64,000 nucleotides of DNA from Rhodocyclaceae bacterium (GTDB lineage Bacteria > Pseudomonadota > Gammaproteobacteria > Burkholderiales > Rhodocyclaceae). The notes beneath the pieces are model-generated. The model saw nothing but the letters and a program-made list of their open reading frames with translations, searched no databases and was not told where the DNA came from. Location of the stretch: the NCBI GenBank assembly GCA_035255045.1, contig DATFAA010000034.1:26435-90434 (forward strand). The letters are read 5' to 3'. The translations under genes and the position numbers were made by a program. Shown piece after piece: positions 10,388-21,444 of this stretch (positions are counted from its first letter, which is position 1; each line of letters begins with the position of its first letter).

Positions 10388-12340
10388 ATGCCTCGCCCCT
10401 CGCCCCGCCTCCGCAGCTATCTGCAGTTCGGTGCCATAGTTCTGGTGGCGGCCGCGCTGCCGGTCGTGGTCTATGTCCTGCTGGCCTATGGCCTGGCGGA
10501 CGAGACCCCCTACGAGACCGGCGAGGCCGCCGGCGGGCTGCTCCTGGTCGGGCTGCTGGCGGCCCTGGCCGTCGGCCTGCCTCTCGCCTTCCTGGTGCGC
10601 CGCCTGCAGCTCGCCCTGGGACGGCTGGCCGAGGCGGCCGGGGCAGGCAAGGCGGCGGTCGCGGCCGATACCCTGCGCCTGGCGGCCAGCGCCATGGAGA
10701 ACACCAGCGAAGGGATGATGGTGGTAGACGAGAGCGACATCATCCTGGCCGTCAATCGGGCCTTCACCGAGATCACCGGCTACGGCGCCGACGAGGCGCT
10801 GGGTCGCAGCCCCAGGCTGCTGCGCTCCGACCGCCACGACGAGGCCTTCTTCCGCTCCCTGTGGGAAACCCTGCAATCCACCGGCCGCTGGCAGGGGGAG
10901 ATCTGGAATCGGCGCAAGAACGGCGAGATCTATCCCGAGTGGCTGACCATCAACCGGATTCCCGCCGGCGACGGCATCGGGACCTGCTACGTGGGGCTGT
11001 TCACCGACATCAGCGAGCAGCGGGAGAAGGAGGAGCGCACCCGCCACCTGGCCTTCCATGACGCCCTCACCGGGCTCCCCAACCGCTCCCTGCTGTTCGA
11101 CCGGCTCCAGCACGCCATGCTCAAGGCCGAGCGGGAAAAGCGGCGGCTGGCGGTGATGTTCGTCGATGTGGACGGCTTCAAGGGCATCAACGACACCCTG
11201 GGCCACGAGGTCGGCGACCTCCTGCTCCAGGAGGTGGCCAAGCGGCTCAGCACCTGTCTACGGGGTACCGACACGGTGGCCCGCATCGGCGGCGACGAAT
11301 TCGTCGTCCTCCTGGAGGATCTGGCGGAGCCGGAACACGCTGCCGGCGTCGCCGCCAATCTCATCGACGTCATTTCCCTGCCCCAGGAAATCGCCGGCCA
11401 TGCGCTCCAGGTGGGCGTCTCCGTCGGCATCGCCCTCTACCCCGAGGACGGCGGCCGGGCCGTCGAGCTGATGAAGGCTGCCGACACCGCCATGTACGCG
11501 GCCAAGGAGGAGGGCAAGGGGGTCTTCCGCTTCTTCCACGCTGCCATGACCGAACGGGCCGCCCGCCGCCTCGAACTGGAAAACGATCTGCGCCGGGCCG
11601 TCCGGGAAGGCGAGCTGGAACTCCATTACCAGCCCCTGGTGCGCCTGGACACCCGGCTGCCCGGCGGGGTCGAGGCCCTGGTGCGCTGGCGCCATCCCGA
11701 GCGGGGCCTCTTGGCCCCCGGCGATTTCATCCTCCTGGCCGAGGAAACCGGCATCGTGGCCGGCATCGACGACTGGGTCCTGACCCAGGCCTGCCGGCAG
11801 CTGGCGGAGTGGCGCCGGCGGGGCATCGACACCAGCATCGCCGTCAACCTCTCGGCCCGGCGGCTGCAGCAGGGCGACCTGCCCGGGCGCATCGCCGCCC
11901 TCGCCGAGGAGCACGGCATCGCTCCCGGCGGCCTCCAGGTCGAGGTGGCGGAAACCCTGCTCATGTCCGACCCGGAAAAGTACGGCAAAGTCCTGGGCGG
12001 GTTGCGGGAGATCGGCGTCGCCGTGGCGGTGGATAATTTCGGCACCGGCCGTTCCGGCCTCGCCCATCTGCGCCGGCTGGCCGTCGACACCCTCAAGATC
12101 GACCGTTCCCTGGTGGCCGCCATCGCCAGCGAGCCGGCGGCCCAGATCGTCCGCGCCACCGTGGCCATCGCCCAGATCCTGGGCTTCGAGCTGGTGGCCG
12201 AGGGAGTCGAGACCCGGGAACAGGCCCAAGCCCTGTGGAAGACGGGCTGCCCCGTGGCCCAGGGCTTTCTCTTCGCCCGTCCCGAGGCGGCCGATATCAC
12301 CGAGCTGTGGCTGGCGACCCGGGCCCTGTCCCAGGGCTGA
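10388..12340 (+). CDS. membrane-anchored PAS-GGDEF-EAL c-di-GMP turnover protein
   Basis: Two N-terminal TM segments and a PAS domain (ITGYGADEALGRSPRLL). The GGDEF domain has an RGTD I-site and RIGGDEF. The EAL domain reads VEALVRWRHPERG. Confidence 0.9.
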   Translation: MPRPSPRLRSYLQFGAIVLVAAALPVVVYVLLAYGLADETPYETGEAAGGLLLVGLLAALAVGLPLAFLVRRLQLALGRLAEAAGAGKAAVAADTLRLAASAMENTSEGMMVVDESDIILAVNRAFTEITGYGADEALGRSPRLLRSDRHDEAFFRSLWETLQSTGRWQGEIWNRRKNGEIYPEWLTINRIPAGDGIGTCYVGLFTDISEQREKEERTRHLAFHDALTGLPNRSLLFDRLQHAMLKAEREKRRLAVMFVDVDGFKGINDTLGHEVGDLLLQEVAKRLSTCLRGTDTVARIGGDEFVVLLEDLAEPEHAAGVAANLIDVISLPQEIAGHALQVGVSVGIALYPEDGGRAVELMKAADTAMYAAKEEGKGVFRFFHAAMTERAARRLELENDLRRAVREGELELHYQPLVRLDTRLPGGVEALVRWRHPERGLLAPGDFILLAEETGIVAGIDDWVLTQACRQLAEWRRRGIDTSIAVNLSARRLQQGDLPGRIAALAEEHGIAPGGLQVEVAETLLMSDPEKYGKVLGGLREIGVAVAVDNFGTGRSGLAHLRRLAVDTLKIDRSLVAAIASEPAAQIVRATVAIAQILGFELVAEGVETREQAQALWKTGCPVAQGFLFARPEAADITELWLATRALSQG

Positions 12341-12518: not shown

Positions 12519-12908
12519 ATGACCGAAGCGGTCCGGGACGCAGATCGGCTGGCCCTCGGCGTGGCGGAATTGGATGCTGCCCAGGCGCGCTTCCTGGAGC
12601 AGGCCGCGGCCCTGGCCCGGGCCGGCGACACCGACTTCCCGGCCCTCTTCGACGCCCTGGTGGAGGACACCCGCCGCCGCTTCGACCGCGAGGGCGAGCT
12701 GATGCGGGCCAGCGCCTATCCCGCCTGGGAAGAGCACGAATACGAGCACCGCCGCATCCTTGAGGAAATGGGCCACCTTACCCGGCGGGTGGCCGCCGGC
12801 CGGATCGCCATGGCCCAGGCCTACGTCGAGGGGCTGCCCATCTGGTTCGCCAACCACCGGGCGATCGTGGACGCCGCCCTGGCGGCCTGGCTCAAGGCTC
12901 GCCCCTAA
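12519..12908 (+). CDS. hemerythrin-like (HHE cation-binding) protein
   Basis: 129 aa predicted four-helix protein with His/Glu metal-ligand patterns (FDREGELM, EEHEYEHRRILEE, ANHRAIVD) typical of bacteriohemerythrins. Confidence 0.7.
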   Translation: MTEAVRDADRLALGVAELDAAQARFLEQAAALARAGDTDFPALFDALVEDTRRRFDREGELMRASAYPAWEEHEYEHRRILEEMGHLTRRVAAGRIAMAQAYVEGLPIWFANHRAIVDAALAAWLKARP

Positions 12909-15900
12909 CCTCTTTCCCCACCCGCGTCCGCCATTTCCCGCCGCATGAAGGCGGTGCACTCCGCCGCCGGCAGCGGGCGGCTGAAGTGGTAACCCTGGGC
13001 GAAGTCGCACTCCAGGCCGCGCAGGAAATCGAGCTGGGCGGTGGTCTCCACCCCTTCGGCCACCACCGCCAGGCCCAGGCTGTGGGCGAGGGAGATGGTG
13101 GCGGCGCTGATGGTGGCGTCGTTGCTGTCGTGCTCGATGTCCATGACGAAGGAGCGGTCCAGCTTCAGGCGGTCCAGGGGCAGCCGCTTCAGGTAGGCCA
13201 GGGACGAATAGCCGGTGCCGAAGTCGTCGATGGCGAGCTCGATGCCCTCGGCCCGCAGGGCGTTGAGGAAGGCGATGGTGCACTCCGGATGCTGCATGGC
13301 GACGCTCTCGGTGATCTCGAGCTCCAGGCTCCTGCCGTCCAGCCCGTGGCGGGCCAGCTGGGAGATGATGAATTCCTGCAGGGAGGCGTCCCGCAGCTGG
13401 TGGGCGGACAGGTTCACCGCCATGCGCTCCAGGGCGATGCCATCCCGGCGCCAAGCCGCCAGCTGGGCCAGGGCTTCCCCGATGACCCAGCGGCCCAGGG
13501 GCAGGATGAGGCCGGTGTCTTCGGCCACCGGCACGAATTTCATGGGCGGGACCAGGCCCTTGTCCGGGTGCCGCCAGCGCACCAGGGCCTCGACGCCGAC
13601 GACGCGGCCGCTGGCCACATCCACCTGGGGCTGGTAATGGAGCTGGAACTCCCCCCGCTCCAGGGCGCGCCGCAGCCCACCTTCCAGGGCCAGCCGCTCG
13701 GCGGTGGCCTCGTTCATGGCGGCGGCGAAGAACTGGTAGTTGTTCCGCCCCATGGCCTTGGCGTGGTACATGGCCGTGTCGGCATTCTTCATCAGTTCCT
13801 CGACGCTTTCCCCGTCCTTGGGATAGAGGCTGATGCCGATGCTGGGAGTGGAGTGCAGTGCCTGGTCCGCCACCCGGTAGGGCTCTCCCAGGCGGTGCAG
13901 CAGCTTGTCAGCCAGCACCGGGACGGCGGCGTCATCCACCTGGCTCAGCACCACCACGAACTCGTCGCCTCCCAGGCGGGCGACGATGTCGCTCTCCCGG
14001 ACCGATTCCCGCAGGCGCTGGGCTACTTCCACCAGCAGGAAGTCGCCGACGTGGTGGCCCAGGGTATCGTTGATGTCCTTGAAGCGGTCCATGTCGATGA
14101 ACATCACCGCCGCCTGCCGGGCCTCCCGGTGGGCCATGGCCAGGGCCTGGTCGAGGCGGCCGTGGAGATGGAAGCGGTTGGGCAGCTGGGTGAGGGCGTC
14201 GTGGTGGGCCAGGTAGTGGATGCGCTCCTCGGCCGCCTTGCGCTCGGTGATGTCGGTGAAGCTGCCGATGTGGTGGGTGACGCGGCCTTCCTCATCCCGC
14301 ACCACGGAAATGGTGAGCCACTTGGGATAGACATGGCCGTCCTTGTGGCGGTCCCAGACCTCGCCCTGCCAGCTGCCCTTGCGCTTGATCGATTCCCACA
14401 TGTTCCGGTATTCCGCCGGGCAGCTGCGGCCGGAGGCGAGAATCCTGGGGTTCTGGCCGATGACCTCTTCCGGGGTATAGCCGGTGACGGTGGTGAAGGC
14501 GTGGTTGACTTCGACGATGCGGTTCTCGTGATCCGTCACCATCAGGCACTCGCCGCTGTGGTCGAAGACGCTGGCCAGCAGCCGGATGCGGTTCTCCGCC
14601 TGCTGGTATCCGGAAATGTCCTCGACCACGGAGAGGGCCTGCGGCTCGCCGTCCGGGGAGCTGATCAGGGAGCCGGACAGGCGCACCGCCACCCGGCTGC
14701 CGTCCTTGCGGATGAACTGCTTCCGGTACGGGCCGTAACGCCCGGTGCTCCCGACGGCCTCCAGCTGCCCGCTGTCGTCCTCGGCGTGGCTGGCGGGGGT
14801 GATGTCCTGGTAGGTGAGGCGGGCCAGCTCCGCCGCCGTGTAGCCGGTGATGGCGCAAAAGGCCGGGTTGGCCGCGACGAAGCGGCCATCGGACAAACGG
14901 TTCACGATATGCCCGACCGGCGCTTCGTCGAACAGGGAACGGAAGCGCTGCTCGTTTTCCTTCAGGGCCTGGTTGGACGCGTCCGCCAGCTGGAGCTGGC
15001 GGCGGTGGCGGAAGTGCATGCGGGTCAGGATGGCCATGAAGAGCAGGGGCAGGATGGCGAAGTAGGCGGTTCCCCTGACCCATTCCCGGTTGATGTCGTT
15101 GCCTCCCAGGCCCACCATCAGCACCAGGGGCCACTCGTCCAGGCGGCGGAAGGCCGACAGGCGGTCGCTGCCGTCCACCACCGAGCGGTGGCGCAGCACG
15201 CCTTCGCTCGAGCGGCTGAGGCCGTCCCGGAAGAGGGCGCCGTGGGCCACCGAGTTGCCCACCTGGCCCTCCACGTAGGGCACCCGGGCCATGACGATGC
15301 CGTCGCTGCGCATGACGGCGATCTGGGTCCGGCGGTCGGGGTCGACCGAAATATAGAGGCGGCCGAAGTAGTCGGGGTCGATGGTCGCCACCACGACCCC
15401 CAGGATGGCGCCACCGGGGGACCGGATGGGCAGGCTGAAGGGCATCAGCCATTCCGGTTCCTGACTGCCCGCCAGACGGGGTTTGATCGGGCTGCCCACA
15501 TACATTCCGCCGGACGTGCGGTCGGCCATCCAGTTGCGGAAGTAATCACGGTCTCCGACATCCACGGGGGCCAGTAACGGGCGGCGGGTCGAGGCCACCA
15601 GCTTTCCCTTGGCGTTGACTACCGAGACCGTGCGCAGGTACGGAAGCTTGGGCATCTCCTGGGCGAGCAGGGCGCGCAGGGCGGCCTGGTCGGCGAAACT
15701 GGGCTCCTCCCGGCGGCCGATATGGATCGCCAAGTGGCTCAAGGCCAGCTGGGTCTCGGACACCGTCTTGGAAAGGTGCTCGTCCGCCAGCCGCACCATT
15801 CCCTGGAGGTACTCCTCCGACCGGCGCCACTGGGCGTAGTAGTCGTAAGCCGAATAGCCGATCAGGCAGATCAGGCCGATGGCGATGGTGAACCAGTGCC

Positions 15901-15970
15901 GGATGGACAGCTGGCGCCGCAAGCGGGCATAGCCGTGTCCCGCGTTTTCCTGCTTGTGTATCTGTGTCAT
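12905..15970 (-). CDS. Cache-PAS-PAS-GGDEF-EAL sensory c-di-GMP protein
   Basis: Start MTQIHKQENAG. A TM segment, a periplasmic Cache-like domain and a second TM segment are followed by two PAS domains. GGDEF has an RESD I-site and RLGGDEF. EAL reads VEALVRWRHPDKG. Confidence 0.9.
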   Translation of the reverse strand: MTQIHKQENAGHGYARLRRQLSIRHWFTIAIGLICLIGYSAYDYYAQWRRSEEYLQGMVRLADEHLSKTVSETQLALSHLAIHIGRREEPSFADQAALRALLAQEMPKLPYLRTVSVVNAKGKLVASTRRPLLAPVDVGDRDYFRNWMADRTSGGMYVGSPIKPRLAGSQEPEWLMPFSLPIRSPGGAILGVVVATIDPDYFGRLYISVDPDRRTQIAVMRSDGIVMARVPYVEGQVGNSVAHGALFRDGLSRSSEGVLRHRSVVDGSDRLSAFRRLDEWPLVLMVGLGGNDINREWVRGTAYFAILPLLFMAILTRMHFRHRRQLQLADASNQALKENEQRFRSLFDEAPVGHIVNRLSDGRFVAANPAFCAITGYTAAELARLTYQDITPASHAEDDSGQLEAVGSTGRYGPYRKQFIRKDGSRVAVRLSGSLISSPDGEPQALSVVEDISGYQQAENRIRLLASVFDHSGECLMVTDHENRIVEVNHAFTTVTGYTPEEVIGQNPRILASGRSCPAEYRNMWESIKRKGSWQGEVWDRHKDGHVYPKWLTISVVRDEEGRVTHHIGSFTDITERKAAEERIHYLAHHDALTQLPNRFHLHGRLDQALAMAHREARQAAVMFIDMDRFKDINDTLGHHVGDFLLVEVAQRLRESVRESDIVARLGGDEFVVVLSQVDDAAVPVLADKLLHRLGEPYRVADQALHSTPSIGISLYPKDGESVEELMKNADTAMYHAKAMGRNNYQFFAAAMNEATAERLALEGGLRRALERGEFQLHYQPQVDVASGRVVGVEALVRWRHPDKGLVPPMKFVPVAEDTGLILPLGRWVIGEALAQLAAWRRDGIALERMAVNLSAHQLRDASLQEFIISQLARHGLDGRSLELEITESVAMQHPECTIAFLNALRAEGIELAIDDFGTGYSSLAYLKRLPLDRLKLDRSFVMDIEHDSNDATISAATISLAHSLGLAVVAEGVETTAQLDFLRGLECDFAQGYHFSRPLPAAECTAFMRREMADAGGERG

Positions 15971-16078
15971 GAAACCCCGTGCCGGCGACCACAAAACCGG
16001 TCGGCGGCGGCCGGACTGTAAGGCCTGTCGGGAAATTTGTCGACGCGCGGGGGCCCCGGGAGGGCCGCTGCTCCTATG

Positions 16079-16804
16079 TCAGCGGCCTGTATCGGCCAGG
16101 GGCGGGGCGAGTTTCCGGCCCGGATCGGGGACGTGGATGGGGGCCTCGACCACGTTCGGATAGCGGTTCGATCCCTCGTCGACGCTGCCGGCGGCATTGA
16201 TGGTGACCCGGACGATGTAGTCCCCCTCGGGAATGCCGGTGATGTCGATCCACTGGCCGTCCAGCTGCCGGTCGTAGAGGTCGCCCCAGCCCGAGGTGAT
16301 GCCCTGGTTGGAGCACAGGTAGCCGTTGCTGGCGGTGCCGCTGTAGGCCAGGGAGTCCCGGAAGCAGAATCCCAGCTTGTGGCCGGCCACCGCCACGCTC
16401 CGGTCGTCGGCCCGCAGCAGCTCGTAGGCGGAGAAGTCGTTGATGTGGAAATGGCCGTGGCAGGGGGCGTACTCCAGCAGTTGGGCGTAGAGGTTGTTGG
16501 GGTCCGACAGGCGGCCGATCACCAGGTCGCCGTCGCCGGCGTTCATGACCACCGTGTCGAACTGCAGGAGGCGGCGGGTGCCGGCCGCCCCCACCACGCC
16601 TTCCCGCAGGGCGCAGCTTTCCCGGCCGAAATCCCGGTCCACGATGCCGAGGGTGGATTTGAAGCGTTCCGGGTCCACCGCCAGGTCCGGCTTGCCGTCG
16701 TTGCCGTAGATGGGAAAGACGGCGGCCACCGAGGCTCGTTCGCCCACCCCCTGGCAGGCCGCCAGAGCAAGCGGCAAAAGGCAGGCGAGAATGGGCTTGT
16801 GCAT
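16079..16804 (-). CDS. lysyl-oxidase-family copper amine oxidase-like lipoprotein
   Basis: GGAGGG Shine-Dalgarno sequence, start MHKPILACLLPLALAACQG (lipobox). PCHGHFHINDFSAYELL compares with human LOX SCHQHYHSMDEFSHYDLL. HKLGFCFRD and GDLYDRQLDGQWIDITGIPEGDYIVRV compare with HKASFCLED and [26 protein letters not shown]. Human sequences are from memory. Confidence 0.8.
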   Translation of the reverse strand: MHKPILACLLPLALAACQGVGERASVAAVFPIYGNDGKPDLAVDPERFKSTLGIVDRDFGRESCALREGVVGAAGTRRLLQFDTVVMNAGDGDLVIGRLSDPNNLYAQLLEYAPCHGHFHINDFSAYELLRADDRSVAVAGHKLGFCFRDSLAYSGTASNGYLCSNQGITSGWGDLYDRQLDGQWIDITGIPEGDYIVRVTINAAGSVDEGSNRYPNVVEAPIHVPDPGRKLAPPLADTGR

Positions 16805-16979
16805 GGCGTTTCCCTCCACGGCGCGATGAATCAGCATAGTTCCCGGCCGGGGCCGCAGACATCGGCTGCGGTCCCCAGACACGCGGCGGAAAAGGGGGTA
16901 ATGCCTTGGGGGGGAAACGCCCGGCAGGAGCCGGGCCTGCCGGCGCCGGCTACCTACCCGTTGCGGGGGGAGCGGGGCT

Positions 16980-17360
16980 TCAGTGGTGGGCGGTGGCGCC
17001 CTTGCCGGAACTGCGGGCCGTTGTCCGGCCGCTCCCCGCCATGCGGCGGCACTCCTCGGCGCAGCGCCGGCAAGCGGCGGCACATTCCTGGCAGTGGTCG
17101 TGCTTGTGCTTGGCGCACTCCTCGCCGCACAGGTCGCAGAGATGGGCGCAGGTGTCGCAGACCGCATTGGCGGCTTCGCTGCCCCGGGCCATACAGGCGG
17201 CGGCCAGCCGGCAAATGTCGGCGCAGTCCATGTCGAGGGCGATGCAGCGGGCCATCGCCTGGACATCGGGCTCGGCCAGGCAGGCCGTGGCGCAATGGTC
17301 GCAGGCGGTGGCGCAGGCCTGGCAGGCGTCGATGCAGGATTGGAATTGCTGATGGGCCAT
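16980..17360 (-). CDS. Cys-rich four-helix-bundle copper-binding protein (DUF326 / Csp3-YhjQ family)
   Basis: GGAGGA Shine-Dalgarno sequence, start MAHQQFQSCIDACQACATACDHCATAC. I count 20 Cys in 126 aa, in CxxxC/CxxC heptad-like spacing. No signal peptide. Confidence 0.8.
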   Translation of the reverse strand: MAHQQFQSCIDACQACATACDHCATACLAEPDVQAMARCIALDMDCADICRLAAACMARGSEAANAVCDTCAHLCDLCGEECAKHKHDHCQECAAACRRCAEECRRMAGSGRTTARSSGKGATAHH

Positions 17361-17462
17361 GATTTCCTCCGATTCGGCAGGCGGGCACCCGGGATTGGGC
17401 GCCCGCAGGTCCGGATCGGGAAGCAAGATGGCCTCCCGGGACGGCCGCGGCGGGCCGCTCCC

Positions 17463-17837
17463 TCACTTCTTGGTGATGGTGGCCTCTTCGATCAGCAGGG
17501 GGTAGGAGTAGCCCATGCCGAAGTCCCGGTTGACCACCACCACGCCGGTGACGGAAACCTGATCGCCGACGGCGGCGGTCTGCTGGCTGGTGACCACCAG
17601 GTTATTGCTGCCTTCGGCGCCGGTGCCGTCCTGCACATGGACGAAGTTACGCCGCATGATGCCGTTGTTCACCTTCACCACCTTGCCTTCGGCCCGGATG
17701 GTCTGGCCCGCCAGGGCGGCCTTGTTGTTGTTCAGTTCCGCGACGCTCTTCAGTTCGGCGTCGGCGGCCAGGGCGCCGAAGCAGGCGAGCCCCAGGGTGC
17801 CGACGAGTCCGGCGAAGGCGATGGATCGAATGTTCAT
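17463..17837 (-). CDS. small secreted protein, OB-fold-like, unknown function
   Basis: Sec signal MNIRSIAFAGLVGTLGLACFGALAADA. The beta-rich mature part contains GQTIRAEGKVVKV...GDQVSVTGVVVV. Good GC3 bias. Confidence 0.6.
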   Translation of the reverse strand: MNIRSIAFAGLVGTLGLACFGALAADAELKSVAELNNNKAALAGQTIRAEGKVVKVNNGIMRRNFVHVQDGTGAEGSNNLVVTSQQTAAVGDQVSVTGVVVVNRDFGMGYSYPLLIEEATITKK

Positions 17838-17915
17838 GAATACTCCTGTGAATGGTTGTGTGCCAGCCCGCCGGGAGTATATCGTCAGGGCGTTTCGGGC
17901 GCTGCTGCAGCTATA

Positions 17916-19255
<1,340 letters not shown>

Positions 19256-19380: not shown

Positions 19381-19701
19381 ATGACGACGACACTGCCGGC
19401 CATGGATGGCGAGGGCTATCTCATCGAACCGAAGGAATGGGACGAGGACGTGGCCCGCGCCCTGGCCGCCCGGGAGAACATCGAGCTGGAGGACGATCAT
19501 TGGGAAGTCCTCCGTTTCATGCGGGCCTACTACGAGGAGCACCAGATCGCGCCGGACGCCCGCCACGCCATCAAGCACCTGCAGGCCCGGGTCGGTCCCG
19601 AGGCCCGCAACCGCATGTTCGAGCTCTTTCCCTACGGCTACGTCGCCCAGGCCTGCAAGATCGCCGGCATGAAGCGGCCGCGGGCCTGGAGCACGGGCTG
19701 A
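19381..19701 (+). CDS. TusE/DsrC/DsvC-family sulfur-relay-like protein lacking the penultimate Cys
   Basis: DGEGYLIEPKEWDEDVA...HWEVLRFMRAYYEEHQIAPDARH...LFPYGYVAQACKIAGMKRPRAWSTG shows the family fold motifs throughout. The C-terminal arm ends without Cys. Confidence 0.85.
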   Translation: MTTTLPAMDGEGYLIEPKEWDEDVARALAARENIELEDDHWEVLRFMRAYYEEHQIAPDARHAIKHLQARVGPEARNRMFELFPYGYVAQACKIAGMKRPRAWSTG

Positions 19702-19883: not shown

Positions 19884-20177
19884 ATGAACGTACTGATCAC
19901 CCAGGCCATCAGGGAAGGCCGTTTGCTGCGGCTGACCTATCAATACCAGGCCAGAACCATCGAGCCCCACGTCCTCGGACTCACCAAGGATCGGCGGGAA
20001 GCCCTGCTGTGCCGGCAGCTGCAGCCCCTGGCGGCGGACGGCGAGGGCTGGCGCCTGTTCTACCTGGCCGGGATTTCCAACCTGCGCATGCTCGACGACC
20101 GCTTCGCGGCGCCGCCGGAAGAGATGCTGCCGCCCGTCGAGCACTTCTCGGCTACGTACGCCATTCTTCAGCCGTAG
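19884..20177 (+). CDS. stand-alone WYL-domain-like small protein
   Basis: GGGGAGG Shine-Dalgarno sequence. The product is MNVLITQAIREGRLLRLTYQYQARTIEPHVLGL...GWRLFYLAGISNLRMLDDRF. This follows the WYL pattern (R-l-x-f-x-Y...R-x-v-x-P...W-y-l...R-x-F-x-l-x-R-I). The 3' end overlaps the convergent kinase gene by 26 nt. Confidence 0.5.
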   Translation: MNVLITQAIREGRLLRLTYQYQARTIEPHVLGLTKDRREALLCRQLQPLAADGEGWRLFYLAGISNLRMLDDRFAAPPEEMLPPVEHFSATYAILQP

Positions 20178-21345
20178 GCGCCAGTTCGCGGTCGGCGGCG
20201 GCCGTGGCGGGCAGGGTGAAGTAGAAGGTGCTGCCGGCGCCTTCCCGGGAATCGACCCAGAGACGCCCGCCGTGGCGCTCCATGATGCGGGTGCAGATGG
20301 CCAGGCCGATGCCGCTGCCCGGGTATTCCTGCTGGGTGTGGAGGCGGCGGAAGATTTCGAACACCCGCTGGTGGTACTTGGGATCGATGCCGATGCCGTT
20401 GTCGGCGACGGAAAAAACCCACTCCTCCCCCTGGCGCTCCGCCGCCACGACGATCCGGGGCGTCTCGGCGGTGTTGTACTTGATGCCGTTCTCGATCAGG
20501 TTCTGCAGCACCTGGGCGAGCTGAATGCGGTCCGCTCCGACGGTGGGCAGCCGGCTGCAGGCCACTTCGGCCCACCGTTCCCGGATCCGTTCGGCGAGGT
20601 TGGCCTTGACCTCCTCGAACAGGCGCTGGCAGTCGGTAGCCTCGAAGGGGCGGGCCTGGGAGTCCAGGCGGGCGTAGGCCAGGAGGTCGTCGATGAGGGA
20701 CTGCATGCGGTTCGTGCCCTCGGCGACCCGGGCCATCCATTCCTCGGCCTCCGGGTCCAGCCGGCCCGCCATGTTGCGGCGCAGGAGCTGGGTGAACAGG
20801 GAGATGGAACGGAGCGGCGTCTGCAGGTCATGGGCCGCCACATGGGCGAAGTGCTGCAGGTCCAGGTTGCTCCTCAGGAGCGCCTCGTTGGCCAGGCGCA
20901 GTTCCTCCTCCACCCGCAGGCGCTCGGCGATCTCGCTGCGCAGCTCCTCATTGACCGCCTGCAGCTGGCGCGGACTGGGAATGCCGAGGGCCCGGGGCAG
21001 CATCGGCCAGAGGGTGACGGCGGTGGCGACCGAAATCAGGGCGGTGAGGGCCTTGAGTCCGGCGTCGAGCCAGTAGAGCGGCTGCCAGAGGATCAGGGTG
21101 CCCACCAGGTGGGTAGTGCCGCAGGCCAGGATGAAGGCGGCGAACATCCAGAGCAGCCACGGGTAGGGGAAATCCGGCCGCCGCCGGGCGAAGTAGCCGA
21201 TGGCCACCGGCATGGAGAAATAGGAAACGCCGATGAGCAGGTCGCTGACCACGTAGGTGCCGATCAGCGGCGCTGACCAGCTGATGCAGTAGCCGTGGGG
21301 CAGGAAGCCGTTCTGGATCAGGAGGCGTCCCAGTTCTTCGATCAT
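20152..21345 (-). CDS. sensor histidine kinase with N-terminal ethylene-binding-domain-like (ETR1-type) 3-TM sensor
   Basis: Start MIEELGRLLIQNGFLPHGYCISW. Residues about 20-130 align to the ETR1 ethylene-binding domain (see findings). A coiled coil, a HisKA domain (FAHVAAHDLQTPLRSI) and a HATPase domain (GIGLAICTRIMERHGG) follow. Confidence 0.85.
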   Translation of the reverse strand: MIEELGRLLIQNGFLPHGYCISWSAPLIGTYVVSDLLIGVSYFSMPVAIGYFARRRPDFPYPWLLWMFAAFILACGTTHLVGTLILWQPLYWLDAGLKALTALISVATAVTLWPMLPRALGIPSPRQLQAVNEELRSEIAERLRVEEELRLANEALLRSNLDLQHFAHVAAHDLQTPLRSISLFTQLLRRNMAGRLDPEAEEWMARVAEGTNRMQSLIDDLLAYARLDSQARPFEATDCQRLFEEVKANLAERIRERWAEVACSRLPTVGADRIQLAQVLQNLIENGIKYNTAETPRIVVAAERQGEEWVFSVADNGIGIDPKYHQRVFEIFRRLHTQQEYPGSGIGLAICTRIMERHGGRLWVDSREGAGSTFYFTLPATAAADRELAPTAEEWRT

Positions 21346-21444
21346 CGCAACTCCCGGCAGGAGGGCCGGGAAGGCCGGCCGACCCCGCATGATAGCCGGA
21401 TTATGGCTTTCGGCCGATGCCCACGGTCTATGCCAGCCGGCTTT

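Follow-up and report, generated by a model that had tools for sequence, protein, structure and literature searches.

The sequence analyzed in this study, referred to as the window, is a 64,000-nucleotide stretch of contig DATFAA010000034.1 from a Rhodocyclaceae bacterium, in which a gene for a bacterial lysyl oxidase (LOX) homologue lies next to csp3, a gene for a cysteine-rich copper storage protein of the Csp3 type. The two share the minus strand, separated by a spacer of exactly 175 bp (16805-16979), and each is present as a single copy in the 4.59-Mb genome. An earlier note on this DNA, made from the sequence alone, had proposed that a cytosolic Cu(I) store located beside an exported copper-dependent oxidase constitutes a metallation or copper-buffering pair. 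Our analysis agrees with what the note had said about the identity of the two genes but points away from a functional connection between them. The features of the locus are collected in Table 1.

Table 1. Features of the LOX-csp3 region, with coordinates given as positions in the window
Feature	Coordinates	Strand	Description	Basis
LOX	16079-16804	minus	241-aa predicted lipoprotein, putative compact LOX-family copper amine oxidase	PF01186; alignment with LOXL2 (5ZE3)
csp3	16980-17360	minus	126-aa predicted Csp3-type cytosolic Cu(I) storage protein	PF03860; alignment with 5fig
LOX leader and proposed promoter region	16805-16916	minus	Shine-Dalgarno (SD) sequence GGAGGG, with an upstream C-run able to pair with the SD	Synteny; alignment A2; minimum free energy (MFE) folds
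Hairpin	16921-16943	minus	GC-rich, 8-bp stem, 7-nt loop, CCGGCAGG-N7-CCTGCCGG; just 3' of csp3	
dCache-PAS-GGDEF-EAL signalling protein	12905-15994	minus	Directly downstream of LOX	Pfam
ORF124	17463-17837	minus	Secreted 124-aa protein; a neighbour, not part of a copper system	
Histidine kinase with ETR1_N ethylene-binding domain	20152-21390	minus		PF25487, E 2.4e-37

The two profile searches that the earlier note had proposed as a check both gave significant matches, with the Lysyl_oxidase family (PF01186) matching LOX at an E value of 5.9e-28 (98.3 bits against a Pfam gathering cut-off of 20.4, covering profile positions 49-182 of 204) and the DUF326 family (PF03860) matching Csp3 at an E value of 9.8e-12. 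None of the NCBIfam models matches LOX. The only solved relative of LOX that is detectable by sequence is human LOXL2 (chain 5ze3_A, E 2.4e-22). The index of this chain equals the residue number minus 317, an offset that agrees with the residue roles described in PMC5899467, where His626, His628 and His630 are metal ligands while Lys653 and Tyr689 are the precursors of the lysyl-tyrosylquinone (LTQ) cofactor. His116, His118 and His120 of the window protein align with these three ligands and Lys143 and Tyr177 align with the two LTQ precursors. Additionally, two predicted disulfides, Cys64-Cys115 and Cys147-Cys164, align with Cys573-Cys625 and Cys657-Cys673 of LOXL2, respectively. Motifs present within the LOX open reading frame (ORF) are CHGHFHINDFSAYELL, HKLGFCFRD, GDLYD and, as the note had also pointed out, the QWIDIT block.

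The catalytic residues are well conserved among relatives of the window protein. In an alignment of 14 close homologues (A1) the His triad, Lys143, Tyr177 and both Cys pairs are all invariant, and in a wider alignment of 40 homologues extending down to 34% identity (A3) there is invariance of Cys64, Cys115, Lys143 and Tyr177, with each of the three His conserved in at least 90% of the sequences. These alignments bear out the note's claim that the copper-site His and both LTQ residues are kept. The copper talon of the animal enzymes follows the pattern W-x-W-H-x-C-H-x-H-Y-H. Window LOX reads LLEYAPCHGHFH, so that the C-H-x-H-x-H half containing the His triad is retained while the Trp-rich half (WxWHxCH) is replaced by LEYAPCH. 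An AlphaFold2 model of LOX built on A3 has a mean pLDDT (predicted local distance difference test) of 91.3 and exhibits the LOX catalytic-domain fold. In a Foldseek search of the Protein Data Bank (PDB) with this model, 5ze3 is the top match (E 4.6e-14, query-normalised template modelling score of 0.65, root-mean-square deviation of 2.9 over 197 columns) and also the sole strong one, as the remaining PDB matches all have E>1e-3. Alignment and modelling support the assignment of the window gene as encoding a putative lysyl oxidase homologue with copper-site and LTQ residues.

The note's description of the protein as a 241-aa lipoprotein is likewise in agreement with our reading. The N-terminus, MHKPILACLLPLALAAC, contains by eye a lipobox at L14-A15-A16-C17 (LAAC) with predicted lipidation at Cys17, and inspection of the n-region reveals one Lys and no twin-arginine motif. 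Because this is a Sec-type lipoprotein signal, LOX would be expected to fold and take up copper outside of the cytoplasm. The protein would thus be exported by Sec, lipidated at Cys17 and folded in the periplasm with its two disulfides, and Cu(II) would then be bound by His116, His118 and His120. Copper- and O2-dependent self-processing of Tyr177, together with its cross-linking to Lys143, would generate LTQ. The resulting enzyme may oxidize primary amines, either peptidyl-lysine or small amines, to aldehydes with formation of H2O2 and NH3, a proposal that is based on the conservation of these residues and on the activity of a tested prokaryotic homologue, HTU-LOX, that is discussed further below.

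The protein encoded upstream of LOX corresponds to what the note had described, namely a Csp3/YhjQ-type protein without a signal peptide. It contains 20 Cys and 8 His and aligns ungapped with BsCsp3 (5fig_A, E 3.8e-25), with 19 of the 19 BsCsp3 Cys residues matched as counted by hand. Further solved relatives are Streptomyces Ccsp (E ~2e-20) and Methylosinus Csp3 (MtCsp3, 5ARM, E 2.3e-15). There is neither a twin-arginine translocation (Tat) nor a Sec signal as the protein starts MAHQQFQSC and enters helix 1 at once, with its residue 4 aligned to residue 3 of BsCsp3. The model for exported Csp1 proteins (TIGR04401) gives 24.6 bits versus a cut-off of 100. The 126-aa reading of csp3 is supported by a GGAGGA SD sequence that precedes the ATG at 17360. 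Judged by its sequence, this cysteine-rich protein is a Csp3, a YhjQ-type cytosolic copper store. Given the near-complete identity of its Cys pattern with that of BsCsp3, it would be expected to store or buffer Cu(I) on its 20 Cys as a tetramer-type cytosolic four-helix bundle. The GC content at third codon positions of csp3 (GC3, 0.874) is similar to that of host genes.

Conservation of the gene pair in other genomes had been named beforehand in the note as a test that could refute the pairing, and we find that the pair does not recur. Our survey covered 76 LOX loci drawn from one-genome-per-species contigs, with up to 6 kb per side and 759 kb in total. A tblastn search detected Csp3 within 6 kb of LOX in none of these 76 loci of other genomes. 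The best non-self match (locus L076, E 0.012) is inside a 513-aa ORF that resembles oxidoreductases of the Gfo/Idh/MocA type, so it is not a Csp3. Co-occurrence anywhere in the genome was checked for the first 50 of the LOX-bearing genomes, three of which have any Csp3-like match, none of them near LOX. Two of these three matches are on a contig other than that of LOX and the third is ~90 kb off by coordinate, if it is on the same contig at all. One of the three genomes (G326) duplicates the assembly of G003, a member of the genus to which the window genome belongs, its match having identical contig and coordinates.

A closer comparison is provided by this genus, where LOX is present in all four genomes and Csp3 in two of the four, and where adjacency is confined to the window genome (none of three relatives). 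LOX is present in G001 (100% complete) and in G002 (95% complete), and Csp3 was not found in either with the window protein as query. The Csp3 of G003 is 55% identical and is located on a separate contig from LOX, in a different context. Synteny of the window with G003 and G002, as defined by blastn, spans 12944-16916 and includes the GGDEF/EAL gene, LOX and a leader of ~110 nt (to 16916 in G003 and to 16850 in G002). Homology then resumes at 17461-17883, which contains ORF124, on other contigs of G002 and G003. Since synteny stops at 16916 and resumes elsewhere at 17461, csp3 is located in a ~540-bp species-specific segment at a synteny break. A search for signs of mobile elements around csp3 gave no convincing flanking repeats. 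Upstream of LOX in both G002 and G003 are NifB-, NifQ- and DraG-like genes (ORFs read by eye). As a separate observation, the public record of G002 (LOX locus L015) has the title 'Actinomycetota bacterium' and looks mislabelled; its LOX, GGDEF/EAL and ORF124 proteins are 71-88% identical to those of the window (~78-86% at the DNA level), and their genes show synteny both to the window and to a metagenome-assembled genome of the Rhodocyclaceae.

The wider surroundings of both genes were also inspected. Among the 301 genomes of Rhodocyclaceae, 41 carry Csp3-like genes; the seven closest of these loci in other genomes exhibit seven unrelated contexts with no shared neighbours. Clustering of 1918 flanking ORFs from 77 LOX loci produced one cluster represented in 67 loci, which is an opposite-strand ORF that overlaps LOX itself. 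The other largest clusters are found in 18 of the 77 loci with example ORFs from Acidobacteriota, and the window is in none of them. A small secreted protein of ~135 aa is encoded within 4 kb of LOX in 18 of the 77 loci and is absent from the window; in an example locus from a Pyrinomonadaceae contig (L033, 5440-5847) it is directly upstream of LOX on the same strand. Copper-homeostasis genes (CopA, CueR, CueO, PCuAC, Sco) were not detected among the 30 window ORFs scanned with Pfam, which cover positions 1-40578. Our literature search yielded no paper linking Csp3 to bacterial LOX, and a term search of a beta-proteobacterial copper-proteome survey found Csp3 named there but neither lysyl nor amine oxidases (PMC6769254).

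Between csp3 and LOX there is indeed the hairpin that the note had reported, and the suggestion that it separates the two transcripts is plausible. The hairpin lies just outside the block that is common to the relatives, with the synteny edge at 16916 being 5 nt past it. Only three T follow the hairpin with no U-tract, a terminator scan did not call it and found no canonical terminator between csp3 and LOX, and folding of the surrounding 91 nt gives a stability that does not exceed that of shuffled sequences (z -0.77). It may mark the point where the csp3 transcript ends. All four genomes of the genus retain the LOX leader together with its SD, although the genes upstream of it differ (four-sequence alignment A2), which argues for a promoter belonging to LOX itself. 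csp3 and LOX are probably present on separate transcripts. Within 16794-16932 (minus strand), a C-rich sequence, GCGTTTCCCCCC, which precedes the start of LOX by ~95 nt, is complementary to the SD region, GGAGGGAAACGC. MFE folds pair this C-rich stretch with the LOX SD in the window, G003 and G001, with a weaker match in G002. The stretch could thus be part of an SD-sequestering LOX leader, with the four related sequences being too few for a judgement of covariation.

Because the adjacency of csp3 and LOX is restricted to a single genome, the explanation that we strongly favour is that they are two independent, ordinary genes that have been joined by a lineage-specific rearrangement. The predicted compartments of the two proteins also disagree, with Csp3 being cytosolic and LOX being exported by a Sec-type lipobox signal without a twin-arginine motif. 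BsCotA, the one documented Csp3 client, is loaded in the cytosol (PMC9484137). The metallation or copper-buffering pair of the note does not stand in light of the genome comparisons, and we regard a functional link between Csp3 and LOX as very unlikely.

Several points do weigh against the independence of the two genes. Both are single-copy, adjacent and on the same strand, an arrangement that by our own estimate has a chance of ~2 in 4300 genes for a pair specified beforehand. We give little weight to this coincidence as any striking adjacency in 64 kb could have been picked. A third copper-dependent protein, the kinase of the ethylene-receptor type with an ETR1_N domain, is encoded 2.8 kb away. 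There is also the precedent of BsCsp3 feeding the copper enzyme CotA (PMC9484137). Furthermore, since no terminator has been demonstrated between the genes, read-through from csp3 into LOX is possible. Lastly, the lipoprotein call and all of the LOX enzymology are what we infer.

A rival explanation is that of a new, species-specific copper module in which Csp3 buffers cytosolic Cu(I) that reaches LOX via a P1B-type exporter or copper-responsive co-expression, with the adjacency being selected. Such a module would be consistent with two single-copy genes that are 175 bp apart on the same strand without a detected canonical terminator, and with the known supply of a cuproenzyme, BsCotA, by Csp3 (PMC9484137). 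However, it is improbable given that the adjacency is conserved neither in the 76 surveyed loci nor in the three genus relatives, that Csp3 is present in only three of 50 LOX genomes, and that CotA is loaded in the cytosol while window LOX has a Sec lipoprotein signal. It also has to contend with a LOX leader that is conserved independently of csp3 and with a neighbourhood where the scan detected neither copper regulators nor copper exporters.

Less probable again is a partnership of LOX with the dCache-GGDEF-EAL protein, whereby an altered amine level or the aldehyde, H2O2 or ammonia generated by LOX would be sensed by the periplasmic Cache domain to set the level of cyclic di-GMP (c-di-GMP). 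The GGDEF/EAL gene is the only LOX neighbour common to the relatives G002 and G003, where tblastn places it directly after LOX at 70-71% identity, and G000, G002 and G003 all show this gene order, with a gap of 84 bp and identities of 70-78%. Its sensor region carries a dCache_1 domain, and domains of this type often bind amines. Conservation of this order is confined to one genus, however, and may therefore be plain synteny. Within the genus, the 16 kb taken around the LOX of G001, which is 66% identical to that of the window, yielded no match to GGDEF/EAL. More broadly, the corresponding neighbour cluster is found in only four of the 77 LOX loci, and a promoter-like site is located within the gap between the two genes.

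Fainter still is the idea that a recent rearrangement has already made a young csp3-LOX module in which copper-induced read-through, with the C-rich GCGUUUCCCCCC pairing with the LOX SD, would tie translation and metallation of LOX to copper status. The least likely proposal is that Csp3 serves the membrane domain of the ETR1_N kinase, which needs Cu(I), rather than LOX: the PF25487 match and the 2.8-kb distance to csp3 would speak for it, as would a Cu(I) site of ethylene receptors that could be reachable from the cytosolic side, but a Csp3-like match is present in only three of the 23 Rhodocyclaceae genomes (of 301) with an ETR1_N domain, which equals the background of 41 in 301 and thus is no enrichment, the two other genomes with both genes (G003 and G311) have them on different contigs, and four ORFs intervene in the window (ORF124 on the same strand; on the other strand a sulfide:quinone-oxidoreductase-like gene, DsrC and an ORF of 123 aa). 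The genome carries a second copy of the ETR1_N kinase, on its contig C18.

ORF124 has no Pfam family above cut-off and has 1257 homologues of 70-99% identity in Rhodocyclales, Sulfuritalea and Burkholderiales, all of which are called hypothetical. In G002 and G003 it is located on contigs without csp3 or LOX and with unrelated genes downstream of it. In the window, ORF124 is divergent from the sulfide:quinone-oxidoreductase-like gene (17978-19255) and from DsrC (19381-19701). On the other side of LOX, the dCache-GGDEF-EAL gene is adjoined by a hemerythrin-domain protein (12519-12908, plus strand) and by a second PAS-GGDEF-EAL protein (10388-12340, plus strand), making this a dense c-di-GMP signalling neighbourhood.

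A word-indexed search with window LOX returned 713 proteins; the best 120 are all 234-270 aa in length, with most at 58-67% identity. The closest metagenome relatives are 78-79% identical and come from contigs of 1.1-1.5 kb. Several homologues of window LOX, from Pyrinomonadaceae, Thermoanaerobaculia and Rhodocyclaceae, already have the NCBI name 'lysyl oxidase family protein'. In an exhaustive search of representatives at 50% identity, the number of matching clusters was 4262 for E<=0.001, fell to 1660 for E<=1e-10 and was 238 for E<=1e-30; multi-domain proteins make up a good part of these. The note had called LOX homologues sporadic in bacteria, which is true of the Rhodocyclaceae, where PF01186 is present in five of 301 genomes and two of 89 genera (all four genomes of the window genus), but not of the domain overall, which is abundant.

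A quick maximum-likelihood tree of 77 LOX sequences, with support given as SH-aLRT (SH-like approximate likelihood ratio test) values only, places the window protein in a four-sequence clade of its genus (SH-aLRT 99). The sister of this clade contains 41 sequences, 38 of them from Acidobacteriota, two from other Betaproteobacteria and one from Haliangiales, and the combined 45-sequence clade is strongly supported (SH-aLRT 99, starred). G029 represents the second genus of Rhodocyclaceae with a LOX, and its protein, at 35% identity, falls outside of this combined clade. The patchy distribution of LOX suggests that horizontal transfer may have occurred. No donor can be named as the genus clade is sister to, rather than nested in, a mostly acidobacterial clade.

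As catalogues of LOX homologues in bacteria go back to 2015 (PMC4448552) and Csp3 is structurally well known, the discovery value of the locus is small. By all indications, window LOX would be a further member of a large, already annotated group of compact bacterial LOX proteins, represented by the 238 clusters at E<=1e-30, and Csp3 would be typical of its family. The main use of this analysis is thus a negative result, in that the attractive story of LOX metallation by Csp3 finds no backing in the genome comparisons and ought not to be passed on.

Members of this compact group are ~240-250 aa long, come mostly from Acidobacteriota and are 55-67% identical to window LOX over near full length, with the catalytic residues invariant in A1. 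They differ in the lipobox Cys, which among the 14 sequences of A1 is present in three from the genus and in a metagenome protein (P0018). The 10 other sequences do not have Cys at this position, four of these being from Pyrinomonadaceae or Thermoanaerobaculia. Prokaryotic LOX proteins have been reported in five bacterial phyla including Proteobacteria and are described as mostly single-domain, with a signal peptide present or not (PMC4448552). Our literature search for a biochemically tested prokaryotic LOX yielded only the archaeal HTU-LOX from Haloterrigena turkmenica, which is a copper-dependent amine oxidase with sensitivity to beta-aminopropionitrile (BAPN) and a relaxed substrate range (PMC6452851). 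HTU-LOX resembles window LOX in being a prokaryotic single-domain protein with an N-terminal hydrophobic signal (PMC6452851), a likeness drawn from its description, and differs in being archaeal. With the animal LOX/LOXL family, including LOXL2 (5ZE3), the window protein shares the Pfam domain, the fold, the His-x-His-x-His site and the LTQ Lys and Tyr. In contrast to the animal enzymes, it has no SRCR domains, no propeptide and no known matrix substrate, being only 241 aa with a lipoprotein signal. Two of the five catalytic-domain disulfides of LOXL2 align, while Cys579-Cys695, Cys663-Cys685 and Cys732-Cys746 are without counterparts. For Csp3, the differences from BsCsp3 (YhjQ, 5FIG) consist of one extra Cys, a C-terminal tail of 18 aa that continues past the bundle and a context without sporulation genes or CotA, whereas the Cys pattern, the KHxHDH motif and the absence of a signal peptide are features that the two proteins have in common.

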